A DNA stretch of 64,000 nt from Candidatus Latescibacterota bacterium (GCA_965219995.1 CBDCOX010000002.1:2816001-2880000); one strand, 5' to 3'. Positions 1 through 15,931 are shown, counted from the stretch's first letter. Notes: generated from the sequence alone by a model not told the origin. Numbers and translations: made by a program.

Positions 1-1
1 G

Positions 2-898
2 CGAGCGTTACACCGGGCGCACGAAATTCCCGAGCGGGTCGTGCGCGACAGCATGGATCAGATTTACCTGAGAGGCGTAACGTGCAGCGAAATCTTCGGC
101 CGGTGGGGCCTGGACGGACACGCGGCCCGCTGGCTGGCCAATTTCCTCCGCGGCGACATCTACGCCCTGGGCCGCCTCGAACACCAGTTCAACGTGATGA
201 ACGACCCGTTTCGCGTCTATCGCCACCGGGAGTCGTCCATGGTCGTCGCGCTGAGCGAAGACGACGTCTCCTATCGCCCGGACGGCCAGCGGCAACGGGG
301 CGGAGATCCGCCGGCGGCGTGGACCTCCCGGCTCCTGGTCACAAGAGACAAGATCGCCGGTCACCCCGTCCTCCCCACCGGCTGCGCCATTGAAGAGTTG
401 GTGACGCTCGACGCGGCCGACTGGGTTCCTGTCCTTCAGCGCGGCGATCCCGTGCTTTATTTTCACATTCCAGGCGGAATCCCGCTGGAGCATGCCGCGT
501 GTGGAGAATCGTTCAGGGCGGCAATGGACTTCTTTCCCCGGCATTTTCCCGATCGCCCGTACAAAGCATTCTTCTGCGGCTCCTGGTTGCTGGACACGCA
601 GTTGGAAGACTGGCTGCCGGCGGGGTCAAATCTGGTGCGTTTCCTGCGGGAGTTCTACCTGGTGCCCGGCGGCATTTCCAAACGGTCCATTCTGCAGACG
701 GTGTTCGGGACCGCGGCCGACGATCTGAGCAGGGCGCCCGTCGACACGTCGCTCCAGCGGGCAATGCTGAAACATGTTTCGCTGGGCAGGCCGATCGATC
801 CCCGGGCCGGAAAATGCTTTATGTTCCCCGAAGACCTGGACTGGGGTCGACAGGTTTACCGAACGTCGAAGTTTCCACGGCATCTGGTCGGTGAATGA
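2..898 (+). CDS. Acyltransferase-domain protein (GNAT-like C-terminal domain, Orf11*/Dbv8-like family); 5' end truncated by the window edge
   Basis: Frame is open from nt 2. Motifs LGRLE, FHIPGG.PL, AFFCGSWLLD and SNLVRF match the NAT_N/GNAT_C acyltransferase pattern. Confidence 0.65.
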   Translation, partial: RALHRAHEIPERVVRDSMDQIYLRGVTCSEIFGRWGLDGHAARWLANFLRGDIYALGRLEHQFNVMNDPFRVYRHRESSMVVALSEDDVSYRPDGQRQRGGDPPAAWTSRLLVTRDKIAGHPVLPTGCAIEELVTLDAADWVPVLQRGDPVLYFHIPGGIPLEHAACGESFRAAMDFFPRHFPDRPYKAFFCGSWLLDTQLEDWLPAGSNLVRFLREFYLVPGGISKRSILQTVFGTAADDLSRAPVDTSLQRAMLKHVSLGRPIDPRAGKCFMFPEDLDWGRQVYRTSKFPRHLVGE

Positions 899-1006
899 TT
901 CGAAATACGCGTCGGATTCGGGGAGAGAACGCAACGCTGTCATTCGGTCACAAGGGCCGGACGCGGCCCGGATGGACTCTATCAACGGGCTGATAAGGAG
1001 GTCGAC

Positions 1007-2137
1007 ATGGAGCGGTTCGGACAGCTCGAACTGGACTACCTGGCGAAAGTAATCGCCAGCGGGACGCTGAACAGCAAGACAGGCAAGTTCACGTCGCAAT
1101 TGGAGGAGCGATTTGCAAAGTGGGTGGGCGCCGAATACGCCGTGGCGATGAACAGCGCGATGAGCGTGCTGCACACCGCTGTGGCGGCCTCGGGCGTTGG
1201 ACCGGGCGTGGAGGTGATATGCGACCCGGTGGTCCACTTCGGGGGCGCGGCGGTGATGTACCACAACGGGGTGCCGGTATTCTGCGATATTTTCGAGGAT
1301 AGCTGGAATATGGATCCCGAATCGCTGGAGGCGTCCATCACGGAACACACGGGCGCCGTCATCTGCACGCCGATGTGGGGCAATCCGCCGGACTACGACG
1401 GGATTCTCCGGGTGGCGGACAGGTACGGCCTGCCCGTGATCGAAGACGTGGCGCATGGGGTCGGGGGTTCGTACCGCGGCAGGCCCCTGGGAACGCTTGG
1501 GGCGATCGGATCGTACAGCTTTCAGGAGGCCAAACACCTCACCAGCGGCGACGGCGGCATGGCGGTGACCGACCGTCCCGAAATGCTGCAGAAGATGCTC
1601 GAGATGAGGATCATCAAGACGTCGCTCGGCTGGAATTATCGCATGACGGAACTACAGGCCGGTGTGATGCTGGCGCAGATGGACCGGGCCGATGACATCA
1701 TCGCGGCGCATCACAGGGCCGGGGCGCTCTACCGCGAGGCCGCGAAGGAATCCCCCTGGCTCGTTCCCCAGCGCGTGGACGAGGGATGCGTCAACGCATA
1801 TCACGCCGTTGCCTTTCGGTTCGAAGGCGACAGCGTGGGAATTCCGGTGGAACGTTTCCAGAAGTCCATGGCCGAGCACGGATGTCCGGTCTCGATCGGG
1901 TACAAGCGACGTTCTGCCGCTGAGGATCCGATTTTCACGGAGGTCCTCGCCTATGGGAAAGGGTGTCCCATCCGGTGCCCCCATTACGGAGGCCAGGCGC
2001 GCTACGGACCAGGCGTGACGCCCGTGGCCGACCGCGCGGTCCCCCGCATGGTGGTGATGCCGATGGATGTGTATACACCGGGGAAGACCGAGGAGTACGC
2101 GGAACGGATCCAGGCGGGGTTGAGCGCGCTTGCGTGA
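1007..2137 (+). CDS. DegT/DnrJ/EryC1/StrS family PLP-dependent aminotransferase
   Basis: VIEDVAHG, SYSFQEAKHLTSGDGG (PLP lysine) and GWNYRMTELQA motifs; AAGGAGG RBS upstream. Confidence 0.9.
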   Translation: MERFGQLELDYLAKVIASGTLNSKTGKFTSQLEERFAKWVGAEYAVAMNSAMSVLHTAVAASGVGPGVEVICDPVVHFGGAAVMYHNGVPVFCDIFEDSWNMDPESLEASITEHTGAVICTPMWGNPPDYDGILRVADRYGLPVIEDVAHGVGGSYRGRPLGTLGAIGSYSFQEAKHLTSGDGGMAVTDRPEMLQKMLEMRIIKTSLGWNYRMTELQAGVMLAQMDRADDIIAAHHRAGALYREAAKESPWLVPQRVDEGCVNAYHAVAFRFEGDSVGIPVERFQKSMAEHGCPVSIGYKRRSAAEDPIFTEVLAYGKGCPIRCPHYGGQARYGPGVTPVADRAVPRMVVMPMDVYTPGKTEEYAERIQAGLSALA

Positions 2138-2219
2138 TCGATGGGCGAGGGTTTCCAGTTCTGGATCGGTTCCATTACTTGGGGGGAACCGGCAGCCACG
2201 ACGGATCGCGCTCCGAGAT

Positions 2220-3137
2220 CTACTGATAAATCCTTTCCAGGTTGAAATTTCCAATGTCCTCCGACTCGACTGCACGGATGATCTGTTCCCGGGTCGAACC
2301 GACAAATGTAAACGGACGGGATAATCGTACGAGGAGTGCGAACCGGTACATCTCCATGTCTATCTCACCATATCCCTCCAGTATATGATCTCGCGTCCAT
2401 GACAGCCCGAAGCGCATGCCCCAGCACTCCCAGTTTGTGAAGTCCCACATTGGCCAGCCTACACCGATTTCCTCCACGTCGACAAACCCGGCGACTTTCG
2501 GCTTCGAACGATCAAAGACGATGATATTGCTGAAGTGGGTATCCGTAAAACACAGCGTCCTGATCAATTCTCCGGGAATGGACGCAGCGTATTTCTCAAA
2601 CAATCGCCGGTATTTTCTTTCGAAATCCTTATCGATCAACTCCGCCTCACGAAGCTGCCCGACGAAATCCTCCATGCGCTGATACGCGCCGGCTCTGGTG
2701 TGCTTGAAAATATACTCCGGGATCGGCGCGGCCACGTTTACGTCGTGCAAGCGGCGCAGCGCCCGGCCCAGCTCCCGACAGAGCGCGTGGCTCTTCTCTC
2801 CCGGTCCTTCTCTTCCGATGATCTCGGATGATGGCACCGCCTCGATCCAGGATATCAGCAGACAGCCGTTCGGAAAATCCGAATCGGGTTCAATCGTTGC
2901 CTCTACGTGCGGACACGGCACGCCCCCCTTGCGCATCTGCTCGTACGCCCATTTCTGCCGAAGAAGCGGGATTGGACTGTTCTCGATTCGAAGTAGATGC
3001 CGTCGCCCTGACTTGCACGTCACCAACAGGTCATCTCGTTCGTCTTTTACAGGCGCAACGGAGACAACAGGAGATTTGTCGATGGACTCGATCAGGTCCC
3101 GCAGTTTGGAATTGAGACCGCTTTGGGGGGATGTCAT
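2220..3137 (-). CDS. Aminoglycoside phosphotransferase (APH)/choline kinase-like protein
   Basis: GVPCP, LGRALRRLH, a Brenner-like xTDTHFSNI motif, GFVDVEE and GWPMWD. Confidence 0.75.
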   Translation of the reverse strand: MTSPQSGLNSKLRDLIESIDKSPVVSVAPVKDERDDLLVTCKSGRRHLLRIENSPIPLLRQKWAYEQMRKGGVPCPHVEATIEPDSDFPNGCLLISWIEAVPSSEIIGREGPGEKSHALCRELGRALRRLHDVNVAAPIPEYIFKHTRAGAYQRMEDFVGQLREAELIDKDFERKYRRLFEKYAASIPGELIRTLCFTDTHFSNIIVFDRSKPKVAGFVDVEEIGVGWPMWDFTNWECWGMRFGLSWTRDHILEGYGEIDMEMYRFALLVRLSRPFTFVGSTREQIIRAVESEDIGNFNLERIYQ

Positions 3138-3365
3138 TGCGGGTCTTTGCGAAGTGATTCGGTGCCCGGCGAGTTCACAAGGGATGTGGTTCGGCGAATA
3201 CCGCCGTTTCCGTCTCGAGTGGATCGGCGTTCAAAACGGACGACAAGAGAACATACGTCTCCGGGCAGGCCAATCGATCCCGACACCGGGAAATGACTGA
3301 TGTTTCAGCACGCTCCAGCAACGGATCGGCGGACCATTGAAAGTCGAGATGCCGCACCGTTGTGT

Positions 3366-4226
3366 TCAATGACCGTGCACTTCTTCCATTCCGTGAACGG
3401 CGCTGGATTCAACGAAATAGAGGGCGTAGGCCAGACCGATTCCCACAAGAAGCGCTGCAATGAGTTTGCCGCGGTCGTGGCTGTGGAAATGGATCTCGGG
3501 CAGCAGATCGCTCAAAGCAATGCACAGGAACGCGCCGGCGGCAAATGCAAGCACATAGCCGACGACCGAGCCATCGTCCGGGCCGAGAAGTCCCACGCCC
3601 CAGAAACTGGCAAGAGCGACAATCGGACACAGTGAAGCAAACGCGACGTTCGCCGCCGCGCGCGCGCGCGCGCCGTGGCCCGCGAACTTCATCATGCCGA
3701 TGATGGAATACGCATCCAGCGGCTTGTGAAGCACGATGGCGAGGAAAACACCGAGCGCGGGCAGCGCCCCTCCGTCTTCATGCGGCGAACTCACCCGCAT
3801 GCTGGTGCCCAGGGCGACGCCTTCTGTTACGGTATGTACCCCGAGGCCCATGGCGACCCCGAACATGCTTCGCGTCTGCGCGCCTGAATGTCCGTGGTCG
3901 TGATGGTCGTACAGTTCGCCCGCCTCGGTACTGAAGTCGTGCTGATGGAAATGGAAGATGCGCAGCAGGAATATCATCAGGATCATGCCGAAGACCACCC
4001 ACGCCACGGCTCTTTCAACATTTCCGGGTCCGCTGATCCGTTCCAGACTGTGAGGGAAGAGATGGTACATGGCGATTCCCAGGATAAAACCCGCCACGAG
4101 GCTCATCAGGACCTGTATCCGCGTATGGGTCATGGATCCCAGAACGGCCAGTCTCCCGCCGATGAAGGAAACGGCAAAGATACCGAGTGAATATCCGAAA
4201 ATGATCAATAACCCGTCGTAATCCAC
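3366..4226 (-). CDS. ZIP family metal (Zn/Fe/Mn) transporter
   Basis: About 8 hydrophobic segments, His-rich loop (FHFHQH...DHHDHGH), GVHTVTEG and IVLHKPLD metal-site motifs, LSDLLPE. Confidence 0.9.
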   Translation of the reverse strand: MDYDGLLIIFGYSLGIFAVSFIGGRLAVLGSMTHTRIQVLMSLVAGFILGIAMYHLFPHSLERISGPGNVERAVAWVVFGMILMIFLLRIFHFHQHDFSTEAGELYDHHDHGHSGAQTRSMFGVAMGLGVHTVTEGVALGTSMRVSSPHEDGGALPALGVFLAIVLHKPLDAYSIIGMMKFAGHGARARAAANVAFASLCPIVALASFWGVGLLGPDDGSVVGYVLAFAAGAFLCIALSDLLPEIHFHSHDRGKLIAALLVGIGLAYALYFVESSAVHGMEEVHGH

Positions 4227-4459
4227 AATAACCTCACCTCAATTTTCCCGGGGAAGCCGCACTGTCCTCTCCGGCACGTGTGCCCGCGCACGTGCCCTGG
4301 CGGCGACTCAATTTGGCCGGATGCCAGACCGGAAACTCCCTCAAGTAACCCCGTGGTCGCACAAACCGTTTCTTCAATAGGAATTGTTCGGGGGCAACCC
4401 ATGATTTCCGCCCCGGATTGCCCCCGAAGAATCCATGTCCCGCGACGACCGAAAGGATT

Positions 4460-4948
4460 TCAGAAGAACCACATCAGAAGTATAATGGCGCTCAGCCCAC
4501 CCAGCATGAACCCCCCTATGCTGACCGCGCCCGACGCCAGTGAATAGTCGGCGATACGAAACGTCTGATCGCCCAGAGTGAAGAGTACCTCGGTACGGTT
4601 GATCTCCCCGTCGACGAATCGTTTCAGTGCCTCTTCCGCGCTGTGGGCTTCTTTCACCGAGACCATGGCCACCAGAATCATCGTCGCCGCGGACGCGAGG
4701 GTTCCGATCGCAAAAATTAGCAGTGTCGTGAGGGCCACCCAGTGGTAGGCCGCGTCCTCGGTTCCCGAAGGAGAACTCATGAATCCGATAATCAGCGCGG
4801 CGCCGCCCGCGTTGCCCAGCAGCAACAGGCGGGCCGACTCGGTAATCAGCCTGAACATCGTACCGCGCCGCATGTGGACGACCTTGTAGAGTTCGCGCAA
4901 CCACTCTTCGCCGATTTCTTCAACGGTAAACTCATCCACCTTTTTCAA
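4460..4948 (-). CDS. Small hypothetical membrane protein (3-4 TM)
   Basis: TTG start 3 nt after the upstream stop, GGAG RBS, hydrophobic segments including LLLGNAGGAALIIGF. Confidence 0.65.
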   Translation of the reverse strand: MKKVDEFTVEEIGEEWLRELYKVVHMRRGTMFRLITESARLLLLGNAGGAALIIGFMSSPSGTEDAAYHWVALTTLLIFAIGTLASAATMILVAMVSVKEAHSAEEALKRFVDGEINRTEVLFTLGDQTFRIADYSLASGAVSIGGFMLGGLSAIILLMWFF

Positions 4949-4951
4949 GGG

Positions 4952-6103
4952 TCAATCTCCTCCGAGATCGATCAGCCGGACGTAGCGCGAACCTGAGTTG
5001 GTTCCGGGCTCGAACGCGAGCTTCCAATCGTCGATTGCAACCGGTCCCGACGTCAATGCCTGTTCCAGGAAGTTCTCCCGCGTCAACCTGTCGCCCATGC
5101 GCCCCAGCACCTCAACGACGAAGCGGCCGAGAATATATCCTTCGAGCGAGACCTCGTTGATGCCGTAACTCCCGTTCCCCGCCTGTTGCCTTTCCGCCGC
5201 CCCCATGGCGCGATGGAAATTGCGCACAACCTGCATGTTCGTATCTTCCGCATCGGGCATCACTTCGGAGACCAGGATTCTGTCGTTCGGCGCGTCGATT
5301 CTCTTCTTCAACTCGTATGACAGGACGAATGACAGGTTGGCCATGATGTATCTGTAGCCCAGGGAGTGCGCCAGGTTGATGATTTCAGCGTTGGAAGCAT
5401 AGGCGCCCACGATCATGATGGCTTCCAGGTCCGCCTTGGCCAGGGCGAACAGACTTGCCTGTACTGCGTGTGTATTCCTCGAAAAGGCAGTCTTCCCCAG
5501 AATGGGAATCCCCATCCCGTCGAGCACCGACTTATAGTTCCTGAGGACGGAGCGCCCGAAAGCGTCGTCCTGATAGATAATGCCGAACCGCTTCTTGCCG
5601 CGCTTCCTCAGGATGTGGTTCACCAGAACGCGGGTCTCGTCCAGATAACCGGCTCTGAGGTTTACGACGTTGGGAAACCGCCTGGCGTTGCGCAGAAACG
5701 AGGCGCCCGTAAAGGGACCCACAAAGGGAATCGTCGCCGTCTTCAGCACCGGCGCAATGCGTTTCGCCGTGGGTGTACCCACACCGCCGATGACGGCGAA
5801 CACGTCGTTTTCGGCTGCGAAACGTTCCGCGTTGGCGGCCGCCAGTTCCGGCTCGTACGCGTCGTCCAGGGAAATCAGCCTGAGAATTCTGCCGTTGACG
5901 CCGCCGCGGCGGTTCGCCTCGTGCAAGGCCGCGCGAATGCCTGCCCGATAGTTGAATCCCAACTGCCTGTTCGGCCCGGAGAAACACGCGCTTTGACCGA
6001 AGACAATCGTCGTATCGCTGACACCTTGCGCCGCGAGGGACGTCGCGACAGGCAGCAGCGCGAGCCAGAATACCAATAGCCCACTGACGATGTGTGCCGC
6101 CAT
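4952..6103 (-). CDS. Periplasmic binding protein, LIV/branched-chain amino acid type (PBP1)
   Basis: Signal peptide; FGQSACFSGP, GGVNGR, DDAYEP, VGTPT and YQDDAFG motifs. Confidence 0.88.
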   Translation of the reverse strand: MAAHIVSGLLVFWLALLPVATSLAAQGVSDTTIVFGQSACFSGPNRQLGFNYRAGIRAALHEANRRGGVNGRILRLISLDDAYEPELAAANAERFAAENDVFAVIGGVGTPTAKRIAPVLKTATIPFVGPFTGASFLRNARRFPNVVNLRAGYLDETRVLVNHILRKRGKKRFGIIYQDDAFGRSVLRNYKSVLDGMGIPILGKTAFSRNTHAVQASLFALAKADLEAIMIVGAYASNAEIINLAHSLGYRYIMANLSFVLSYELKKRIDAPNDRILVSEVMPDAEDTNMQVVRNFHRAMGAAERQQAGNGSYGINEVSLEGYILGRFVVEVLGRMGDRLTRENFLEQALTSGPVAIDDWKLAFEPGTNSGSRYVRLIDLGGD

Positions 6104-6133
6104 TCGCTACCCTCTTCCCGAGGCGTGTCACAT

Positions 6134-7570
6134 CTACTTCGACGTGGCGCCACCCTCCCCCTTCGTTCCCGATTTGCCGGCAGCCACGTCCTGCTTCCCC
6201 TGCTTGACGGCGGCCTTCGCTTTCTTTTTCTTGCCCTGCCCCGGGGCGACCTTCGTTTTCTTCACGGATTTGACGCCTGTCATTGCCTGCGTCGTCGACC
6301 TTGCATCCTCCTCAGGGAGCACCTCCACCATCGGCTTCTCCTGCTGCTGCCGGCTGAACCGTTTGCCTCGCACAACGTGGCTATGAGAGAATATCGAAGG
6401 TGTGTCGAAAATGAGCGACCGGGGGTTGGCCACGAGCAGGTGATCGCGTTCCGCGCGCACTCTGTGAAACTGGCCGTCGAGCGTGAGTCTGTCCTCATCG
6501 ACGTTTTCGATCTTATGTATATCGGGCATTTGCGTTGATGATAACGCCATCCTGCCGGCCGCCGCGCCACCTCCGGCGGGCGGTTCCCCCAGCGCCAGGT
6601 CCGCAGGCGTGAATCCGTCTCCCACGCCGTCGATCATGTTGATATCGATGGCAGACTGATTGGCCGGGTTGACCGCCGCCAGGCTTGCCTCCGAGAAAAT
6701 CTGGCGCATTCGATCCCAGTAGCGCGTGATTCGAACGTGCGAGGGTTGCTTCCGGTATTCCGACAGCAGTGCGGTAAACGCTCCGGCGCTGCTTCCGGCC
6801 TGCACAATCCGCTCTTGCGCCCTCGCCTTTGCCTCCAGCACCAGCGCCTCGGCCTGTCCGCGGCTGCGGGCGATCAACTGCTCCTTCTGGCGGTTGGCGT
6901 CACTGACCGCCTTTGCACGTTCCGCGAACGCGTCGCTGACGTCTCGAAACGCGGCGATGGTTTCCTCAATCGGGCGCACGTCGACGATGTCGAGCGAAAC
7001 AAGTTCGATCCCGATCTCGCGGTTCTCGAGCCAGCCGGTAACCCGTTCGAACAACCGGCTTTGAATTATGTTTCGATTCGAGGTGAGAATCAGGTCGATG
7101 AAATTCTCGCCCAGGACGTCGATCAACTCTTCCCTGGTGTATGCGGTCAACATCGCAGTGGGATCGGAGGAAGTGAACAGGAAGTTTTTGAGATTGTCGA
7201 TCCGGTACTGAAGGGCCACGTCCACTTCGAGCAGATTCACGTCTCCGGACAATATCGTGAAGTTGACCTTGCTTCCCTCCCGGCTGGCCACCTGGAACCG
7301 GGTGACCCGCTTGACCTTGCGGAGGTGTACCTTGTCGATGAAGGGGATGCAATACCGTATTCCGGGGCTGACGTTTTCTTCGACCAACCTGCCGAATCGG
7401 AGCACAACGCCGCGTTCTTCCTTCTTGACAATGTAGAACCCGCTGGCCAGGATGCATACGACCGAGGCGACCGCCGTCCAGACCAGGATTCGCCGCTGGT
7501 GTTTCGAGTAGTAATCGAACACGGCGTAGATGATCCGCGTACTTTGCGGCAATGACGTCTGTTCACTCAT
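6134..7570 (-). CDS. hflK: HflK-like SPFH protein with long C-terminal extension
   Basis: N-terminal TM; SGFYIV..EERGVVLRFG, LSGDVNLLEVDVALQYRI, AAFRDVSDA and ARSRGQA motifs; coiled coil. Confidence 0.8.
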   Translation of the reverse strand: MSEQTSLPQSTRIIYAVFDYYSKHQRRILVWTAVASVVCILASGFYIVKKEERGVVLRFGRLVEENVSPGIRYCIPFIDKVHLRKVKRVTRFQVASREGSKVNFTILSGDVNLLEVDVALQYRIDNLKNFLFTSSDPTAMLTAYTREELIDVLGENFIDLILTSNRNIIQSRLFERVTGWLENREIGIELVSLDIVDVRPIEETIAAFRDVSDAFAERAKAVSDANRQKEQLIARSRGQAEALVLEAKARAQERIVQAGSSAGAFTALLSEYRKQPSHVRITRYWDRMRQIFSEASLAAVNPANQSAIDINMIDGVGDGFTPADLALGEPPAGGGAAAGRMALSSTQMPDIHKIENVDEDRLTLDGQFHRVRAERDHLLVANPRSLIFDTPSIFSHSHVVRGKRFSRQQQEKPMVEVLPEEDARSTTQAMTGVKSVKKTKVAPGQGKKKKAKAAVKQGKQDVAAGKSGTKGEGGATSK

Positions 7571-7588
7571 TTCAGTCGAACTCTCGGA

Positions 7589-8479
7589 TTATCGGGGTGA
7601 GGACCTGCTGTTGAGGTATTTGAAGAGCTCGTTGTCGGCCGGCAGCATCAACGTGGTGTTCCGGTCGATGATCAGATCGTAGCTGTCCAGAGCGCGGATG
7701 AAGCTGTAGAAACCCGGATCCTGCCGGTACGCCTTGCCCAGCAGCGCCATCGCCTCGGCCTCGGCCTTACCGAGAATGGCCGTTGCCTCCGCGTGGGCGT
7801 CCGCCAGCAGCTTTTCGTGTTCGTTAATGGCCAGGGCCTCGATGCGCAGGGCCATTTCCTCGCCCTCGCTGCGGTATCGGGCGGCAATGCGTGCCCGTTC
7901 CGCGATCATTCGCTGAATGACGCTCGGGCGGTTCTCCGTCGGCAGCGTGTATTCGACGATGCCTGCTTCGATCACGTCGATCCCGTAGCTTTCTCTCGCA
8001 ATTGGCGCGATTCGAGCGTGTATTTCCCGCGAAGCCTCGTTCAGGTCTTCGTGTTCCAGTCCCAGCCCGATGAAGGCGTCCAGAGATTTGTTGCTGATGA
8101 TGATCCCGCTGCTGGACAGATAGAGATCCTGCAATCGCTCGACGGCGTTCTTGCCGGTGCGGATCGCCTCCACGAAGAGAATCGGGTCCACGGTCTTCCA
8201 GAGCAGGTATCCGTCGACGCGAACGCTTTTCTGATCGTCGGTGATCAACTCGTGGGGGACGTTCGTCAGCGTATGGATGCGTCGATCCACCTTATAAATT
8301 CTGGAAATCGGGCGGGGCCACTTCACGTGCAATCCCGGTTGCCTCACCGGCGGCGAGATCCTGCCGAAGTGTGTCAATACGCCCTGTTGGGTTTCGTGGA
8401 TAATGTAGATGCTGTCGTAGACGATTGCGCCGACAACCACGGCGAGGGTCGCGGTAATCGTGGCTTTCTTGAGCGTCAT
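7589..8479 (-). CDS. hflC: HflC-like SPFH protein
   Basis: PGLHVKWP, LITDDQK, RMIAERARIAARYRSEGEE and AYRQDPGFYSFIRALDSY motifs. Confidence 0.88.
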   Translation of the reverse strand: MTLKKATITATLAVVVGAIVYDSIYIIHETQQGVLTHFGRISPPVRQPGLHVKWPRPISRIYKVDRRIHTLTNVPHELITDDQKSVRVDGYLLWKTVDPILFVEAIRTGKNAVERLQDLYLSSSGIIISNKSLDAFIGLGLEHEDLNEASREIHARIAPIARESYGIDVIEAGIVEYTLPTENRPSVIQRMIAERARIAARYRSEGEEMALRIEALAINEHEKLLADAHAEATAILGKAEAEAMALLGKAYRQDPGFYSFIRALDSYDLIIDRNTTLMLPADNELFKYLNSRSSPR

Positions 8480-8599
8480 TGCCTTTCCTCGTCAATTAGG
8501 GCGTGCGGGGCGCCCGGTGTCAACGGAATGTCTCTCTATGCTTTCCGGCCGGCATGCGGCTCCGCTGCAAAATGACCGGCCGGCAATGCTTCTTTGAGA

Positions 8600-10912
8600 T
8601 CACGGTTTCGACTTCGGAACGGCCTTCTTTCCGTGCCTGGGAGACGCGCCGTGGCTGGCGCCTGCGGAGTTTCTCTTCCACAGCGCGACCTTTTCGAGAC
8701 TCTTCTTGTTTGGAACGATAATCTTGGGATTGCCGGACAGCGCCGTTTCCAGTTTTTCCCGCCAAAGCATGTTCCGCAAAACGCCCGGCGCGCTTCTGAC
8801 GGCTTTGGCTACCGTTGAAATGGCATCGGCCTCGGCGGCTGAGGTCTTCACTTTCCGATAGGCCTCGCCGTCGGCCTGCTGCACCTCCCACGCCGCGTTT
8901 CCGTGCGCCTGTGGCACCAGCGATACCAGGAAACGCTGAGCGTTTACGATGATGCGCTCCCTGTCCTCCTGCGCGCTGGAAACATCCCTGAAAGCGCTCA
9001 TGGTCTCCGCCACGGGGCTGACGTCCAGCAGGTTGATCTTGACGACTTCAACGGTTTTCAGCACCGGATTCGTGAAATGTACGTCCACGTCGAAGGAATC
9101 GGTGAGGTGCTCTTCAAGCGTTTCGCGATGCACGTTCAGCAGTTTCTCGAGGTCCCTCGCGGAAATGAAGGAGCGGATATGGGCCTTCATAACGTCGGCG
9201 ATGACCTTCTGTGGATCCCCGGTCCGATAATGGTAATTATACGGGTCCTTGACCCGATACTGGACGTTGACGGTCAGGGAAAGCAGGTTGAGGTCGCCCG
9301 AGACGTACTCTTCCGGCGTTTCGCACAGGATGGACTTCACTTCCCGTACCGGCCATTTGTCGACCTTGACGAAGGGCCAGGGGGCGAGATAGCTCAAGCC
9401 CGGCTGGATGTCACGCCAGTAGACTTCGCCCAAAAGCCTGCCGTAGCCTACCGAATTGGGAGGAATGGTTGTGAATCCGCTGGCCAGGAAAAGGACGAGC
9501 AGCAGCACCCAGAGCATCTTGCCCATGGGTGTTGCGGGAGTAATGATCCCCCTGAAGCTCCGGTTGCGGGTCAGACGCTCCCAGGCCTGGCGCCAGGGCT
9601 TCGACAGGGGCCGGATGTTCAACAGCAGGTCTTCCCACCCGCTGCGGAGCGCGCCCGCACGGAAACGCCAGACGATGAGCGCGATGAGAATGAGGCCTGA
9701 CCCCCACTGAAGGATCTGTATCGTCGGGGATTCCGAGGGGCCAAGGTACACCGGTATCGTAAAACCGGTGGCAATCAGCAGGGCGTCGATCAGAATACCG
9801 AGCGCCACCGTGACGGCGATGACCGCCGCGACGTATATGGTTGCGAAACGAGCGCCGAACTGGCTGACGATAATCGCGATCGTACCCGTATTGGTGGCCG
9901 GCCCGGTCATCAGAAAAATCAGCGCGGCGCCAGGGCTGAATCCCTTGGCGACGAGGGCCGCCGCGATCGGCGTGCTCGCGGATGCGCAGATATAGAGAGG
10001 GACGCCGACCAGCACCATCACGGGATAGGAGACCCAGCGGGCGTATTCGTTCGTCATCAGATCGCCCGGTATCACCAGAAAGAGCACGCCGCCCAGGGCC
10101 ACGCCAACCAGCAGCGCGAAGAGGATGTCGTCCGCAATCTCCACGAAACCGTAGTGAAAGACGTGCTTCACCAGCTTTTTGAAGTCCAGCGCCTGATCGT
10201 CTTCCGAGGGCGAGGCCTTTTCCGCCGCGGACGCCTCCACCGCGTCGCGGTAAAAGGCAGGCTTCACCCAGGAAAGGGACTTCCATCGCCCGGCCATGGT
10301 CGCAACGTTCTTCAGCCATTGCACGAAAAGGCCCTTCAGCCGCGAAAAGCTGACGTAGCAGTCGTCAGTTTCGGGAATGAGGGGTTCGTGCGAACCGTGG
10401 TCATGGTCGTGATCGTGGTCGTGCCCGTGATCATGGTCATGGTCATGCCCATGTCCGTCGTGGCTGTGGTCCGACGCGGTTTCTTCAGGGTCGTTGCGTA
10501 TCAGGCCGATACAGAAGATGCCGGCGACGACTGCCGTGATGAAACTGATGACCGGCCGGACGACCGCGGCGACGAATCCGAAGAAGGCGTTTGTGACCAG
10601 GATCGAGTCCGCCCCCGTCTCCGGAGCGGTTATCAGGAAAGACATGCAGGACGAACGGGACGCACCCTTCCGCCGCATCTCGGCGACCACGGGGACAACG
10701 GAACAACTGCACAAAGGCACGGGTACGCCGACGGCCGAACTCACCGCAACGGATTTCAGGCTGTCGTCCTTGAGCCACCGGAGGATGGCCTCACGGGAGA
10801 TGAATACATGGATGACGCCCGACAGGAACAGGCCCAGCAGCAGCATGGGCGCCAGCAACAGGGACGACATCCAGAGAAAGTCGAAAAAACTGATCAGGGT
10901 CTGCTGTACCAC
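8600..10912 (-). CDS. SO_0444/DUF318 (ArsP-like) metal permease fused to a C-terminal HflK-like SPFH domain
   Basis: N-half: GVPVPLCSCSVVP, FLITAPETG.DS, a loop with 13 His, PLYICASASTP, GPATN. C-half (about 9517-8600): TM, PGLSYLAPWP, SGDLNLL..VNVQYRV, AFRDVSSAQED, VPQAHG.A. GGAGG RBS before the GTG start. Confidence 0.85.
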   Translation of the reverse strand: MVQQTLISFFDFLWMSSLLLAPMLLLGLFLSGVIHVFISREAILRWLKDDSLKSVAVSSAVGVPVPLCSCSVVPVVAEMRRKGASRSSCMSFLITAPETGADSILVTNAFFGFVAAVVRPVISFITAVVAGIFCIGLIRNDPEETASDHSHDGHGHDHDHDHGHDHDHDHDHGSHEPLIPETDDCYVSFSRLKGLFVQWLKNVATMAGRWKSLSWVKPAFYRDAVEASAAEKASPSEDDQALDFKKLVKHVFHYGFVEIADDILFALLVGVALGGVLFLVIPGDLMTNEYARWVSYPVMVLVGVPLYICASASTPIAAALVAKGFSPGAALIFLMTGPATNTGTIAIIVSQFGARFATIYVAAVIAVTVALGILIDALLIATGFTIPVYLGPSESPTIQILQWGSGLILIALIVWRFRAGALRSGWEDLLLNIRPLSKPWRQAWERLTRNRSFRGIITPATPMGKMLWVLLLVLFLASGFTTIPPNSVGYGRLLGEVYWRDIQPGLSYLAPWPFVKVDKWPVREVKSILCETPEEYVSGDLNLLSLTVNVQYRVKDPYNYHYRTGDPQKVIADVMKAHIRSFISARDLEKLLNVHRETLEEHLTDSFDVDVHFTNPVLKTVEVVKINLLDVSPVAETMSAFRDVSSAQEDRERIIVNAQRFLVSLVPQAHGNAAWEVQQADGEAYRKVKTSAAEADAISTVAKAVRSAPGVLRNMLWREKLETALSGNPKIIVPNKKSLEKVALWKRNSAGASHGASPRHGKKAVPKSKP

Positions 10913-11070
10913 GCAATCGCCTCCACCGCATTGGGTGATGCAAGGGGACGCCTGGCAGGCGTTTCGGAAACCGGGAACGGGAGGCGCCGATCACAACGAC
11001 ACGCGAGCAGCTTCGTCGACAGGCCCGTTCACTGATGAAAAAGCCCGCTCCCCTTCAGGGAACAGGGCGG

Positions 11071-11101
11071 CAATAATAGTGATTATTGAATGTCAAGTCA
11101 A
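11071..11101 (-). promoter_or_regulatory. Sigma70-like promoter (TTGACT-17-TATTAT) overlapped by the palindrome CAATAAT-agtg-ATTATTG
   Basis: -35 at 11101-11096, -10 at 11078-11073, perfect 7-4-7 inverted repeat at 11071-11088, upstream of the permease-SPFH operon. Confidence 0.6.
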
Positions 11102-11168
11102 GGGCTACGTAGGTTATTATGTGCGTATTATTAATATAGTATATTTCGTCGCCGCTGCAAGGGAAGAT

Positions 11169-11360
11169 ATGCATATGGACGCACTCCGGTTTGTCAGGTC
11201 CGGCGGTCCATCGGCGGAAGGCCGCTCACGGTGTTATGCGACCATTCAGGCTGCCCTCGATGACCGGAGCGGGAGCGATACTCTGACATTGGCACAGGGT
11301 CCGTTTCACGGTCCGCCAGACACGGGGTCGCAGCCGGCCCGGCTCGTACTTCTGACATAG
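11169..11360 (+). pseudogene. Probable relic N-terminus of a parallel beta-helix protein
   Basis: The short ORF contains YATIQAALD...SDTLTLAQGPF, resembling the Y.TIQ.AID.A..GD.I.V..G.Y lead-in motif, and stops after 63 codons. Confidence 0.4.
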
Positions 11361-12142
11361 CGCGGTCGGTTGTGTATCGGGCGGAACCCGACCCTGCCAT
11401 ATACCCTTTCGGCAACGCTTCCGGCCGCCACTTCAAGTCCGGTCCATCGATTGCCCATCTCCCGGGAGTCCGCGACCGCACGCGCGGTCAAACCGGACGC
11501 CACGCCCCTGCGGCGGTATTCCGGCAGCGTGCCGACGAAGTCCACGCAACCCACGCCGTATTCCGTGTAGAGCAAGGCGGTTCCCGCCGGCTTTCCATCC
11601 ACGGTTGCGAGGTAGAGCCGTACTGCGGGAATGTCGAGCACCCTTCGGCCCAGTACGCCTACGTCGGCCGGAAAATCGAAGCTGCGGCACATGGTGTCCG
11701 CCCAGATTCCGTACCGGCCCGGTACCGGTTCTTCGATCCGAACGGATTCCGGAACGACGGGCTGTGCTGCCCGGTCGCAACGCATCGCCACGGCCTGCAT
11801 GGCAAGACTGAAACCGCGTCGTTCCAGACGTTCGGCAAGATCTGAGGGCCGGTCCAGGGGCGACAGGGTAAACGCGCATTCAAAGTCCCTCTCCCGGAAG
11901 TAGTCAAGGGCGCTGTCGATCAATGTATCCACCCCCGTCTCCGGCACGTCTATCTGTACGACACGATGCAGCATGGGCACTTTGACGTCATCGTGGCTGA
12001 ACGCAGTGGCCCCTCCCAGGTCGTGGCTGTCGCACCAGCGTGCACGGAAGCCGACCCAGAGTCTTTCGAAAATTTCCGTGAACCGGTCAGGCACGGGACT
12101 TGAAACCCTCCGGGAATCTGTTACGTTTCGTGGCGCCGGCAC
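11306..12142 (-). CDS. GNAT family acetyltransferase
   Basis: VGTLPEYRRRGVASGL acetyl-CoA motif and VYGRVGF. Start position uncertain. Confidence 0.85.
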   Translation of the reverse strand: MPAPRNVTDSRRVSSPVPDRFTEIFERLWVGFRARWCDSHDLGGATAFSHDDVKVPMLHRVVQIDVPETGVDTLIDSALDYFRERDFECAFTLSPLDRPSDLAERLERRGFSLAMQAVAMRCDRAAQPVVPESVRIEEPVPGRYGIWADTMCRSFDFPADVGVLGRRVLDIPAVRLYLATVDGKPAGTALLYTEYGVGCVDFVGTLPEYRRRGVASGLTARAVADSREMGNRWTGLEVAAGSVAERVYGRVGFRPIHNRPRYVRSTSRAGCDPVSGGP

Positions 12143-12374
12143 AATCGTGATGGCTTGCTCTCGATTGACTACCTGTCGAATTCAAACCGGACGTCCTTTG
12201 CGTTCGCCTGCCACATTTGTATATTGTCTTGCCTCTGGAAGCGGGTTGGCCAGCCGGGAATTGCAACTTCCCGCCCTGTGTTCCGTCTTAATGGTCGTAT
12301 CGGACGATCGGTCCGCCGTGGCGGACGACTTCGCCGGCTCCTTATAACATCTGCGGAAAACGAGGTCTTGCAAA

Positions 12375-13364
12375 ATGAGGTTTATCGTAACCGGCAGCAA
12401 CGGCTTCATCGGCCAGAATTCATGCCGCCGCCTGGCCGCACTTGGACACGAAGTCATCGGTGTGGACGATCTGTCTTCCGGGACCCCTCCCAACGGCGTG
12501 AACGGCGTACATTACCACAACCGCAGCGTCGTGGATGCGGATTGGCTCGTGGGACTCCTGAAAGACACGGTCCCGGACGCGGTCCTTCACCTGGCGGCAA
12601 AGCCGAGGGTCCCGTATTCGGTGCGGAATCCGCTGCGCAGCGCCGAGGCGAACGCGATGGGAACGCTGTCTGTTCTCAGCGGGATTCTAAAGGCTGAACT
12701 GGCAGAGAAAACCCGGCTGGTTTTCGCCAGCAGCAGCGCGGTTTTCGGCGACGCGACGGCCCTCCCGACCCCGGAGACATACCCCTCGAATCCACAGTCG
12801 CCGTACGCGCTGGCAAAGCTTCAGGGCGAGCAGTGGTGCGACCTGTTTCATCGATTGTACGGCCTGGACGTGGTGAGCCTGCGGTATTTCAATGTGTTCG
12901 GACCCGGCGCGCTGTACGGGGGCGCCTATTCCACGGTCCTGTCGGCCTGGCCCTACCATCTCTTCGTAGATCCTTCCAACCGGCCCTTCCTGGAGGGCGA
13001 CGGAACCCAGACACGGGACTTCTGCTTTGTCGACAACGTCGTCGAGGCGAATATCGCCGCGGCCACCCGGGAACGCGGCTTCGCGGCGGACGTTCTGAAC
13101 GTGGGACAGGGCGAGGCCCACACCCTGCTTGAGGTCAAGGGAATTCTGGAGGAAGTTGCCGGCAGGAAGCTCAATCTTGAACGCCGGCCGCCCCGTGTTG
13201 GCGACGTTGCCCACACCCTGGCCGACATCAGGCGCACGCGGTTGGAACTCGGGTTCGAACCGTCGACCGACTTCACCACCCAGGTCGAACGAACGGCGAT
13301 ATGGTTCCGTGACTGTTATCCGAAGGGGCGTTCGAAAGGTCAGCGTGGCAAGGGGAGCGGATGA
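12375..13364 (+). CDS. NAD-dependent epimerase/dehydratase (UDP-sugar 4-epimerase-like)
   Basis: VTGSNGFIG, ASSSAVFG, SPYALAK (YxxxK), LRYFNVFGP and GDGTQTRDF. Confidence 0.92.
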   Translation: MRFIVTGSNGFIGQNSCRRLAALGHEVIGVDDLSSGTPPNGVNGVHYHNRSVVDADWLVGLLKDTVPDAVLHLAAKPRVPYSVRNPLRSAEANAMGTLSVLSGILKAELAEKTRLVFASSSAVFGDATALPTPETYPSNPQSPYALAKLQGEQWCDLFHRLYGLDVVSLRYFNVFGPGALYGGAYSTVLSAWPYHLFVDPSNRPFLEGDGTQTRDFCFVDNVVEANIAAATRERGFAADVLNVGQGEAHTLLEVKGILEEVAGRKLNLERRPPRVGDVAHTLADIRRTRLELGFEPSTDFTTQVERTAIWFRDCYPKGRSKGQRGKGSG

Positions 13365-13414
13365 AGTCGCCGCGATCGCCTGAAAGTGGAAACCAGAAGC
13401 TCGGGCTGGAAGAT

Positions 13415-13491
13415 TGGTGGGCGATACTGGATTCGAACCAGTGACCTCCTGCTTGTAAGGCAGGCGCTCTAACCGGCTGAGCTAACCGCCC
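13415..13491 (-). tRNA. tRNA-Val(TAC)
   Basis: Reverse complement reads GGGCGGTTAGCTCAGCCGGTTAGAGCGCCTGCCTTACAAGCAGGAGGTCACTGGTTCGAATCCAGTATCGCCCACCA: cloverleaf, TAC anticodon, encoded CCA. Confidence 0.97.
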
Positions 13492-13793
13492 ACGGACTTG
13501 CCGGACGCCTCGTCGGGCGGTTTTCTCGATTCGCCCAGCAGCAGGCCGAGCGGGATCAGCACGCAATAGCCGATTACCAGCAGAATGGGCGCAAGCGTGA
13601 GTGACAGGAAACCGTCGACCGGGGGTTGGGACAGGCAAAGGTAACCAATCAGTATTGTCAGTACCCCCGCCCCCAGGAAGGTCCAGTTCCTGCGGGTATA
13701 TGGCAGCGGACTCCCGGCCGGCTCCCGCCGCTGTGTCTGAGCCCTGCGTCCGGTGCGGCCGCGAGGGCGTCGTCCTGGATTGCGCGTCGGCAT
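13482..13793 (-). CDS. Small 2-TM membrane protein (DUF3098-like)
   Basis: LPYTRRNW.FLGAG...IGY...GFLSLTLAPILLVIGY pattern; directly downstream of rplS. Confidence 0.65.
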   Translation of the reverse strand: MPTRNPGRRPRGRTGRRAQTQRREPAGSPLPYTRRNWTFLGAGVLTILIGYLCLSQPPVDGFLSLTLAPILLVIGYCVLIPLGLLLGESRKPPDEASGKSVGG

Positions 13794-13814
13794 CCGATTA
13801 ACCCGTGTGGTCGA

Positions 13815-14168
13815 TTACGTGGCTCGTTTCTCCGCAATCCTCGCGGCCCGGCCCTGCAGCTCGCGCAGGTAGGTAATGCGGTTCCTGCGGACCTTACCGC
13901 TACGAATCCGCTCGACTTTCGCAACCCGCGGTGAGTGGAGTGGGAAAATCCTTTCAACGCCCACACCGCCCACCACCATCTTTCGTACGGTAAAGGTCTC
14001 GTGGATCCCGTGGCCCCGACGCTGGATCACCACGCCTTCGAACAACTGCGTGCGCTCCTTCTCGCCTTCCACCACCCGCACGTGCACCCGCACGGTGTCC
14101 CCGGCCCCGAATGCCGGCACGTCGGACTTGATCTGTTCCTCCGATAACGATCTCAACAACGCATCCAT
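13815..14168 (-). CDS. rplS: 50S ribosomal protein L19
   Basis: [26 protein letters not shown] and GVERIFP. Start re-set to MDALL behind an AGGAG RBS. Confidence 0.97.
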
Positions 14169-14257
14169 GGCAACACTCCTGAAACGATGAAATTCGCCTG
14201 TCGAAAACCTGACGCCGGTATCCATTCTGAATGCGCGGCGGAAACCCTGCCAGGGGA

Positions 14258-15004
14258 TTATCTCCCGTGCCCGCCGGCATTGTGGCCTCCTGCGCCGGAA
14301 CTTTCGTCTGACACTCTGACATTGTAAAGGTCCGGGCGCCGTTTCCGGGTCCGTTCTACCGCCGCGTCGTGCCGCCATCTGGCAATCTGCCGATGGTCGC
14401 CGCTCAACAGAACATCCGGAACCCGCAGCCCTTCGAACTCCCTCGGCCTCGTATACCACGGGCAATCCAGAAGTCCGTTCTGAAACGAATCCTCCAGAGC
14501 GGATTCCGCATCTCCCATCGACCCCGGGATCAGTCGAACGATCGCATCCGTCAACGCCAGCGCGGGCAATTCGCCGCCGCTCAAGACGTAATCGCCAACA
14601 GATATCTCTTCGGTCACGTACAGTTCGCGAACGCGTTCGTCGATACCCCGGTACCGTCCGCACAAAAACACCAGATTCGGCGCAAGGGATAGCCGGTTCA
14701 CCGTCTTCTGATCCAGCCGCTTCCCCTCCGGCGTCAGAAAAATCACGTGCCCCAGGGGCCGCCCGGCCTCCTGAATGGCCCCCAGCGCTCGCGCGATCGG
14801 TCCCGCCATGTACACCATGCCCGCGCCGCCGCCGTAGGGCGTGTCGTCCACCGTACGATGTGCGTCGTCGGCAAAATCCCGCAGATCGTGCGCAACGACC
14901 TTAACCAGACCCGACCGGATCGCACGACCCGTAATGCCGTACGTAACGACGTCGCGGATCAAATCCGGAAAAATGGTGAGGAAGTCGATATGCATTGGTC
15001 GCAT
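14258..15004 (-). CDS. trmD: tRNA (guanine-N1)-methyltransferase
   Basis: [34 protein letters not shown] and YTRP. Confidence 0.97.
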
Positions 15005-15024
15005 CGCGGCGGCTCGCGCGTACT

Positions 15025-15555
15025 TTAATTGAGGAGTCCTTCCACGTTCTTCACGACCAGACGCCCGCCCGCCAGATCGACCCGAACCAGGTCCCTTGCG
15101 GCGGGTACCAGAACCTCCGTCCCATCTTCCCTGCTGATCACGTACAGATCGTTTCCCGGGTGGGAAATGACATCCTTCACATTTCCGATTTTCGCGCCTG
15201 CTTCCGTCTCCGCATTCAGCCCCACGATCTCAAACACGTAGAACGTGTCTTCAGGAAGCCGATACACCTGGTCGGCGGAGACCAGCAACTCGCTTCCCCG
15301 CAACGGCGCGACCGCCTCGGGCGTATCGATACCCGCGAACTTGATGGCCATCCGCCGCCCGTAGGTCCGCACATGATCGATCCCGAGTGTCAACCGACTC
15401 CCATCGGGTTTTTGGAGCAGGGATTCGGCGAGTTCCTGAAACCGTTCCGGAAAATCCGTCAGGGGATGCAGAAACGCCTCGCCCCCGAGGCCCCTCGGTT
15501 TCAGAACCCTGCCGATGGCGACGAATCGTCCCCCGCCTGCCGGATTCCTGGACAA
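15025..15555 (-). CDS. rimM: 16S rRNA processing protein RimM
   Basis: IGRVLKPRGLGGE, TDFPERF and NDLYVI; position in the rpsP-rimM-trmD-rplS operon. Confidence 0.93.
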   Translation of the reverse strand: MSRNPAGGGRFVAIGRVLKPRGLGGEAFLHPLTDFPERFQELAESLLQKPDGSRLTLGIDHVRTYGRRMAIKFAGIDTPEAVAPLRGSELLVSADQVYRLPEDTFYVFEIVGLNAETEAGAKIGNVKDVISHPGNDLYVISREDGTEVLVPAARDLVRVDLAGGRLVVKNVEGLLN

Positions 15556-15558
15556 GGA

Positions 15559-15864
15559 CTACTCCTCGACTTCAGGATCCACGCCGTCCGTCTCGTCCGA
15601 ATCCGCCGCGGACCCGTCGCCTTCGTCCAGAATCCCCTGCTGTCGAAACAGGCTCATCACGGTTCCTGACGGCACTGCGCCCAGGTCCAGCCAGTGGCGC
15701 GCCCGCTCGGCATTCAAGCTCACGATCTGCGGACTCTCCGTTGGATCGTAATACCCCAGGCTTTCAATGAACCGACCGTCCCTGGGGGACCGGCTGTCCG
15801 CGACCACGACCCTGTAAAACGGCGCGTTCCTTGCGCCCTTGCGGGTCAATCGAATCCTTACCAA
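15559..15864 (-). CDS. rpsP: 30S ribosomal protein S16
   Basis: VRIRLTR.G....[26 protein letters not shown]; TTG start behind GGAGG. Confidence 0.96.
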
Positions 15865-15931
15865 AATCCATCCTCCCGATCTGAGAACCAACTGCCCGAG
15901 TTCTTTTGCTTTGTGGATCACTGTCTGCACT

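Follow-up and report, generated by a model that had tools for sequence, protein, structure and literature searches.

The 64,000-nucleotide stretch of DNA analysed here (the window) belongs to a Candidatus Latescibacterota bacterium (GCA_965219995.1, CBDCOX010000002.1:2816001-2880000), whose genome of 5.4 Mb is 98.6% complete with 7.6% contamination. It contains six open reading frames (ORFs), all on the minus strand (window 10912-3366), which encode a fusion of a permease with an HflK-like domain (K1; 8600..10912, 770 amino acids), an HflC-like protein (C; 7589..8479, 296 amino acids), a second HflK-like protein (K2; 6134..7570, 478 amino acids), a LIV-type (Peripla_BP_6) periplasmic binding protein (4952..6103, 383 amino acids), a small membrane protein (4460..4948, 162 amino acids) and a ZupT-like ZIP metal transporter (3366..4226, 286 amino acids, PF02535). 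The intergenic gaps, from the fusion to ZIP, are 120, 18, 30, 3 and 233 nt. The fusion operon is widespread and unstudied, is anticipated by the hmtA cluster of Pseudomonas aeruginosa and is often lost in the present lineage. We lean towards the view that the products of its three SPFH genes form an HflK/HflC-type assembly in the membrane that is dedicated to metal homeostasis and induced at zinc shortage; the SPFH cage devoted to metal that a first-pass annotation of the window had proposed is partly supported.

ORF coordinates and a Pfam/NCBIfam scan (Band_7, ArsP_1, Zip) confirmed the co-directional six-gene order noted in that annotation. Band_7 was found in all three SPFH proteins, the best PDB matches are HflK, and the trio thus belongs to the HflK/HflC (SPFH3) subfamily. 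C scores 157 on TIGR01932 (cut-off 134) and K2 165 on TIGR01933 (cut-off 159), with the HflK part of K1 below the latter cut-off (134 vs 159). The Peripla_BP_6 and Zip domains of genes four and six were both recovered by the Pfam scan; the small 162-amino-acid protein had no Pfam or NCBIfam match, and its Atlas look-alikes are unnamed clusters. Three LIV-type paralogues are located elsewhere in the same genome. K2 ends in a C-terminal tail of ~160 amino acids (window 6134-6610), in which the close clade conserves DGQFH..R.ER.H..ANPRSLIFD.PS.FSH.H followed by a Lys-rich end. Metatranscriptome contigs of relatives (88-95% identity; runs X1 and X2 of one study) cover parts of all six genes; as contigs cannot show transcription or its level, they were not counted as support.

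The N-terminal part of K1 is a permease domain of the SO_0444/ArsP_1 (DUF318) type (residues 1-~415, window 10912-~9670, minus strand), matching ArsP_1 (PF03773) at residues 10-375 (E 7.9e-45) and passing the SO_0444 family model NF033936 (322 bits, cut-off 300). A membrane linker (residues ~396-460) leads into an HflK-type transmembrane segment, SPFH domain and coiled coil (residues 462-750, window ~9529-8663), with Band_7 (PF01145) matched at residues 502-658 (E 9.5e-13). The fusion is no assembly artefact, since the gene is one open frame of 770 codons, one contig from run X5 (possibly the source sample) spans window 2900-10624 with zero differences, and fusions of this kind recur in hundreds of proteins. 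Among 110 full-length fusions that were aligned, permease residues C68, C70, R119 and C309 are invariant (110/110) and E98 is kept in 109; the CSC and CASA motifs are conserved in the K1 permease domain. The His/Asp-rich permease loop (10385..10471, minus strand, about residues 148-176, DHSHDGHGHDHDHDH...) is variable, with at least five His in 46/110 fusions and none or one in 37/110. A motif specific to K1, H-x-P-x-x-V-H-x-A-F-R-D, contributes two histidines to the predicted cage wall: His632 is present in 97/110 and His638 in 74/110 fusions, and neither in any of eight housekeeping HflK or 15 K2 proteins; His632 is also found in 5/6 K1 proteins of other trios.

The alignment-based single-chain AlphaFold2 model of K1 (pLDDT 85.4, pTM 0.63) predicts a helical permease whose His loop is disordered, then a linker helix, and finally the transmembrane segment, SPFH domain and coiled coil of an HflK-like part. 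Escherichia coli HflK (7vhq/7vhp) ranks first for the SPFH part by Foldseek, by a wide structure search and by sequence, and a sequence search of solved structures returned no match for the permease domain. In the whole-model search, the modelled permease (residues 1-385, window 10912-9758) can be superposed on transporters of the elevator type (Pho90, Z 13.6, root-mean-square deviation 4.2, 270 aligned residues; ArsB, Z 12.1; also INDY and TRAP), at Z values that helical bundles can reach through a common arrangement. A single-sequence fold of this domain (pLDDT 45.6) was discarded, and a complex prediction for two permease-domain copies (residues 1-450), which scored 0.00, was counted neither way.

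Of 720 homologues obtained by a word-based search, 120 were listed, and almost all of these, at 60-96% identity, have both Pfam domains. A HMMER search covered 1.84 billion representatives; of its 150 top-scoring clusters (50% identity), 114 have matches to both halves, and the match is confined to the permease in 33 and to the SPFH part in three. Genomic loci were fetched from GTDB for the best 80 of 591 confirmed matches, and they include fused as well as unfused genes because the search patterns came from the permease half. Thirteen distant loci, from Acidobacteriota, Myxococcota, Planctomycetota, Pseudomonadota, Eiseniibacteriota, Tectimicrobiota and further lineages, hold a full fusion; one additional fusion runs off its contig and another is truncated. 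The next gene is hflC in 13/13 and is followed by K2 in 12/13, the lone case without K2 (L048) stopping at a contig edge. No SPFH gene was found in the 65 unfused permease loci, some of which lie on short contigs. The LIV-type and small genes accompany all 15 intact close cassettes with enough DNA and none of the 13 distant fusion loci; therefore, the conserved core is K1-C-K2. The fusion-hflC-hflK order, for which the first-pass annotation had suggested a conservation check, holds across phyla; the six-gene unit does not, its LIV-type and small genes being local to the clade and its SPFH part being repeatedly deleted in close relatives. The plasmid collection yielded no full-length fusion (0/45 records cover 80%).

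Other arrangements were seen among the homologues. In two Pseudomonadota loci (L049:2691-4723 and L059:6755-8858, the latter from the cultured Bradyrhizobium erythrophlei GAS478), the genes ahead of the fusion include a fourth, hflC-like SPFH gene and one for an acetamidase/formamidase. A ZIP::ArsP_1 fusion is encoded in a Planctomycetota genome (L066:8068-10029), and protein P0255 is an ArsP_1::ABC ATPase fusion; a candidate ZIP domain on P0018 was rejected, as it falls below the cut-off and overlaps ArsP_1.

The genome holds six Band_7 matches in total, including a normal two-gene hflK-hflC pair at C2:1335-1337 kb, so the search for a separate canonical hflKC suggested earlier had a clear outcome. 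This pair scores 278 and 218 bits on the models that give 165 for K2 and 157 for C. The single Peptidase_M41 (ftsH) match of the genome is at C2:435.5 kb and hflX at C2:5080.6 kb, 2.25 Mb from the trio; the absence of both from the window, as first observed, is correct, and the neighbours scanned at 12 fusion loci include neither gene. The trio also lacks the housekeeping hallmark of a two-gene operon, often with hflX: it has three SPFH genes in the order K1-C-K2, and hflX is distant. In the HflC tree (33 rows), eight HflC proteins of two-gene loci, including those of E. coli and of this genome, form a clade (100/98) without any trio C. A ninth row first labelled as housekeeping (Acidobacteriota G070) fell outside this clade, and its locus proved to be another trio. 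A constraint joining the trio C with the genome's own HflC was rejected (p-AU 0.008). The HflK tree (51 rows, quick method) places K1, K2 and housekeeping HflK each on one side of a branch (supports 79, 71 and 93), the deeper order among trios lacking resolution; K1, C and K2 of the present clade sit on long branches. The phylogeny called for at the outset thus separates the trio from two-gene HflK/C, and there is hardly any doubt that K1, C and K2 are dedicated old lineages that travel together, apart from housekeeping hflKC. On a Vibrio plasmid (L031:4883-8270), hflK-hflC is directly followed by nhaA (Na+/H+ antiporter); this pair falls inside the two-gene clade.

The permease is one of several membrane domains found at the K1 position. 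The best plasmid match to C, from Aquibium oceanicum (NZ_CP018172.1, L029:6367-10012), lies in an hflK-hflC-hflK array, the first gene of which, annotated simply as HflK, encodes a CDF transmembrane domain::HflK fusion. The same order, CDF::HflK-hflC-hflK, occurs in 10/10 full-length metagenome loci (L200-L209), with a P1B-ATPase gene downstream in four and upstream in one; a gene for a PPIase-like protein follows these trios, often succeeded by a heavy-metal P-type ATPase. A search of 401 sampled Pseudomonadota genomes (E 1e-70), run without a positive control, found no CDF::HflK. A third kind of K1 membrane domain, unnamed, is present in the long hflK-hflC-hflK-P1B-ATPase arrays on plasmids of Paraburkholderia, Klebsiella and Rhizobium; a Burkholderia record shows the trio. 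These plasmids bear out the mention in the first-pass annotation of hflK/C genes beside P-type ATPases, an association that in P. aeruginosa has been described at the level of expression. The unnamed domain is read as unrelated to the permease (hhalign probability 0.6%) and gave no named family in Atlas searches; its interpretation as a degenerate CDF found no support (profile comparison probability 0.1%, with a shallow CDF profile). A homologue search with this K1 returned enterobacterial names and no P. aeruginosa row among the 120 matches listed. In the Acidobacteriota genome G070 (L173:4349-11992), a fur-family gene, znuA, znuC and znuB are followed by a long K1, C and K2; this K1 is of the unnamed, hmtA-linked type, and the same genome also holds a permease fusion. 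K1 always carries an N-terminal membrane domain. That three different membrane domains occupy the same K1 position is our strongest argument for reading the trio as a scaffold for metal transport proteins.

Control of the operon was assessed from its promoter. A −35 box TTGACT (11101) and a −10 box TATTAT (ending at 11073) precede the fusion, and a putative operator of the Fur family, probably of Zur (11071..11091, minus strand; CAATAAT-C-ACTATTA, centre 11081), sits between and over them. The first-pass annotation had reported a palindromic operator overlapping the promoter. The palindrome (CAATAAT-CACT-ATTATTG, 11088-11071) and its overlap with the −10 box are real; its centre, 11079.5, does not stand, as the best-kept symmetric centre across eight orthologous promoters is 11081, 1.5 nt away. 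The element centred there is a 7-1-7 repeat of Fur type with the consensus GATAAT-C-ATTAT, which we take to be a Fur-family box. When a matrix is built from the eight relatives and not from the present site, this site scores highest in the whole 5.4 Mb. With the own site masked, three of the top ten matrix sites lie in the two clusters that hold the only Fur-family genes of the genome (C2:2926.8 kb and C2:4162.6 kb): one precedes znuC, one a TonB-dependent receptor gene that follows a fur gene, and one, in the other fur cluster, a gene for a His-rich protein. COG0523 genes are present in each cluster, and znuCBA in one. Sixty column-shuffled matrices gave no zinc-cluster site 55 times and one site five times. 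Taking the palindrome centre (index 22 or 23) as the matrix centre gave 0-1 zinc-cluster sites in the top ten vs three, and was abandoned; a match at C2:4167102, inside a COG0523 coding region, was left uncounted. Reverse 21-bp matrices built from the znuC and receptor sites rank the present site 7th-8th. Neither Fur-family protein passes a named Fur or Zur model cut-off. A box common to the znuC and TonB-receptor promoters points to Zur, and Zur-type control of this operon is predicted with good, if incomplete, confidence.

The third-ranked operator match, C2:1313082 (L167:2961-4691), lies outside the zinc clusters at the start of a gene for a CPA2/Kef-type cation antiporter. At the predicted transcript start of the operon there is a GC-rich hairpin followed by a T run (11044..11066, minus strand); 78% of its cells are paired in nine orthologous sequences, and covariation does not exceed that of shuffles. 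An Rfam scan of window 1-16000, in which only a tRNA passes, found no riboswitch in the leader.

Genes around distant fusions with flanks of 1.5 kb or more on either side were compared with those around stand-alone permeases. znuA/znuB or ZIP occurs within 3 kb in 6/11 distant fusion loci vs 2/38 stand-alone loci (Fisher p 0.0007, a value overstated because of kinship among the genomes and because fusion neighbours went into some of the profile building). Among the stand-alone loci, the Pfam scan found a ZIP gene in one, and another is a ZIP-permease fusion. znuABC or ZIP is co-directional with the trio in several phyla. By Pfam scan, MerR or ArsR is encoded directly upstream in 12/38 stand-alone loci (81 of 150 picked neighbours), whereas it is in 0/12 fusion loci (44 of 123 picked neighbours, one upstream ORF of 73 amino acids being unscanned). 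No P1B-ATPase gene was found in the 13 distant fusion loci. The metal-homeostasis context postulated in the first-pass annotation is thus substantiated, and znu/ZIP neighbours and the shared promoter box make zinc limitation its most likely form.

A close described counterpart of the cassette is PA2434-PA2439 (hmtA) of P. aeruginosa, in which, as far as the published accounts go, three hflK/C genes stand by a metal transporter, respond to zinc shortage and have a Zur-bound promoter. In a znuA mutant, PA2437-2439 were reported to be up 9- to 14-fold (PMC4542158), zinc depletion is described as raising the abundance of their proteins (PMC11761036), and Zur is stated to bind the PA2439 promoter only with zinc (PMC8531726). 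The transporter of P. aeruginosa differs in being a separate P1B-ATPase, and loci with the PA2437-2439 gene order (L030, L169-L171; linked to P. aeruginosa by gene order and annotation, not sequences) have the unnamed K1 domain and form their own K1/K2 branch. The present trio shares the three-gene order with the hmtA type and departs from it in its K1 domain and in having no P1B-ATPase in distant fusion loci. To the E. coli HflK/C-FtsH complex (7vhp/7vhq, 7wi3, 9cz2, 9paw), described as a periplasmic cage of alternating subunits in which HflK binds the client FtsH (PMC13220708), the trio is akin in its single-transmembrane SPFH subunits and its best sequence and fold matches; it differs in having three subunit types, one fused to a polytopic transporter, in forming separate clades, and in its zinc-type operator without hflX/ftsH context. 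The N-terminal domain of K1 resembles the SO_0444 family (NF033936, PF03773/DUF318) in score and motifs; known members, however, are stand-alone and often under MerR/ArsR, and here the domain is HflK-fused in a zinc-uptake context. Members with selenocysteine in the CxC motif are listed in one source (PMC13188914). Human stomatin, reported to enclose aquaporin-1 and UT-B (PMC12407830; PDB 9zd2), is likewise an SPFH assembly with transport-protein clients rather than a protease, but is described as a eukaryotic homo-oligomer of a distant subfamily with non-covalent clients. In the searchable text of a survey of prokaryotic SPFH proteins, the terms permease, metal and transporter do not occur (PMC2636767), and a search of full-text literature, which includes few subscription papers and no regulon supplements, gave no publication that describes HflK fused to a permease or to a CDF.

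We therefore propose the following mechanism for the cassette. With zinc plentiful, a Zur-type repressor would keep the operon off, judging by the operator; at zinc shortage, the caged permease would be made alongside the ZIP importer (ZnuABC in other phyla). K1, C and K2 very probably co-assemble. By analogy with E. coli HflK/C, C would alternate with K1 and K2 in a ring, e.g., K1-C-K2-C, whose SPFH domains and coiled coils would face the periplasm. Each K1 would bring one permease into the membrane patch fenced by this ring, the covalent tether standing in for the non-covalent contact of E. coli HflK with its client FtsH; the same analogy makes us incline slightly towards a permease that sits inside the ring. 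The cage would most likely concentrate and protect metal transporters. As to the direction of transport, there is an even chance that it is import rather than export.

A number of observations count against this view, or narrow it. The scaffold is often missing: in a set of 168 genomes from the phylum, the fusion is complete in 25, and in 37 there is a truncated permease, of the same clade, that has lost its SPFH part. The truncations end at query residues 434, 438, 442, 446, 449, 451-452, 629 and 636; leftover scraps of the small or LIV-type gene persist at some of these loci, with ZIP usually next, and ZIP is retained beside the permease in most close loci minus SPFH genes. In the permease tree (59 rows), the label fused/truncated changes at least six times, and the two nearest relatives of the present copy are truncated. 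As truncated copies recur across tree and genomes, the permease persists without a cage; with numerous relatives relying on permease and ZIP alone, the cage is to be regarded as an accessory. Both K1 histidines are lost in this copy and its close clade (window 9019-8999, residues 632-638); metal sequestration in a periplasmic chamber, put forward in the first-pass annotation, has nothing in its favour here. Tracing of the operator is confined to the genus, by-eye inspection of promoters from other families giving no clear copy, and reverse 15-bp matrices rank this site 36th-49th. Zinc-uptake genes are missing within 3 kb of 5/11 distant fusions, and in two related loci tested (L117 and L121) the cassette lies directly behind a CusA/CzcA efflux gene. 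One published study saw no repression of hmtA mRNA by zinc (PMC8531726), and SO_0444 is reported to be required in Zn or Cu excess, mutants failing in ZnSO4 or CuCl2 (PMC3219624). Finally, the residues R141, E142 and R185, through which E. coli HflK contacts FtsH (PMC13220708), do not separate the trio from housekeeping proteins, in a comparison where these residues vary in housekeeping HflK outside E. coli and the alignment is uncertain near an insertion.

Two further arrangements were noted at truncated loci. In L190, L191 and L034, two truncated permeases face away from each other, ~4.5 kb apart, and in L123:4142-4756 and L124:7781-8395 a deletion scar encodes a 204-amino-acid SPFH/LIV chimera between permease and ZIP.

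The contact residues lead to the alternative that fares best, in which the trio is a zinc-shortage regulator of FtsH: it would still enclose FtsH, itself a zinc protease, and the tether would bring the permease beside it, so that the permease supplies zinc or FtsH removes or spares metal transporters as zinc changes. A basic residue at the R185 position, present in 7/8 housekeeping HflK proteins, is common in K1 (7/15) and K2 (8/15), C and K2 exceed the NCBIfam cut-offs for hflC and hflK, the fold matches E. coli HflK, and papers on P. aeruginosa treat PA2437-2439 as FtsH modulators (PMC9431628, PMC11761036). In this genome, however, the position is A in K1, T in K2 and R in housekeeping HflK, neither ftsH nor hflX is found in the window or in the neighbour scan at 12 fusion loci, the own hflKC pair scores far higher on the models, and regulating FtsH needs no tether to three different membrane domains. 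We consider this explanation unlikely, in both of its versions, and are mildly in favour of an assembly that is mostly FtsH-independent.

Export or detoxification of Zn, Cu, Cd or Co, with the permease exporting in the way suggested for SO_0444 and the cage holding the metal or passing it to an RND pump, would agree with the ‘Cu/Zn efflux’ title of NF033936, with the SO_0444 mutants and the reported induction of a homologue by Cd and Cu (PMC10092412), and with the CusA/CzcA genes in L117 and L121; the other named K1 partner, CDF, is also a mostly exporting family, often encoded before a heavy-metal P-type ATPase. The operator common to znuC and TonB-receptor promoters, the co-directional znuABC or ZIP genes of several phyla and the occurrence of the excess sensors MerR/ArsR at stand-alone permeases and not at fusions speak the other way, and we regard export as quite improbable. 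That the SPFH genes add little, permease and ZIP being the working unit and the scaffold a generic stabiliser under loss here, has the scattered truncation ends, the gene scraps, the majority of truncated genomes, the long branches and the lost K1 histidines on its side, but is very improbable given that the order of the three genes persists at 25-35% identity in at least six other phyla, that all six genes are intact in 15/15 close full fusions with flanking DNA, and that no locus has the fusion without C and K2, or the reverse, although one deletion removes all together.

Outside the cassette, the window contains genes for a DegT-family aminotransferase (1007-2137), an APH-type kinase (2220-3137) and a GNAT acetyltransferase (11306-12142) and a tRNA gene (13418-13491), none of which appears tied to it.

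The dedicated zinc-shortage assembly that we favour may be one case of something broader. It is conceivable, if doubtful, that the trios constitute a second class of HflK/C cage, independent of FtsH and built from three subunits, one of which would serve as a wall socket fused to an ArsP permease, a CDF or an unnamed domain; such a cage would place a periplasm-facing chamber, lined in most cases by the K1 histidines, over a transporter at zinc shortage, and might turn an export family to high-affinity uptake or recycling.

FtsH is the only bacterial HflK/C client studied structurally, and what an SPFH cage does to the proteins that it encloses is an open question. A natural covalent fusion of client and cage fixes the identity and stoichiometry of the client, and the many natural deletions supply matched forms of one transporter, with and without a cage. 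If the proposed role is correct, it would explain the Zur-regulated PA2437-2439 of P. aeruginosa, whose annotation as FtsH modulators is untested, and a large protein family would need its labels ‘Cu/Zn efflux’ or ‘FtsH modulator’ corrected.

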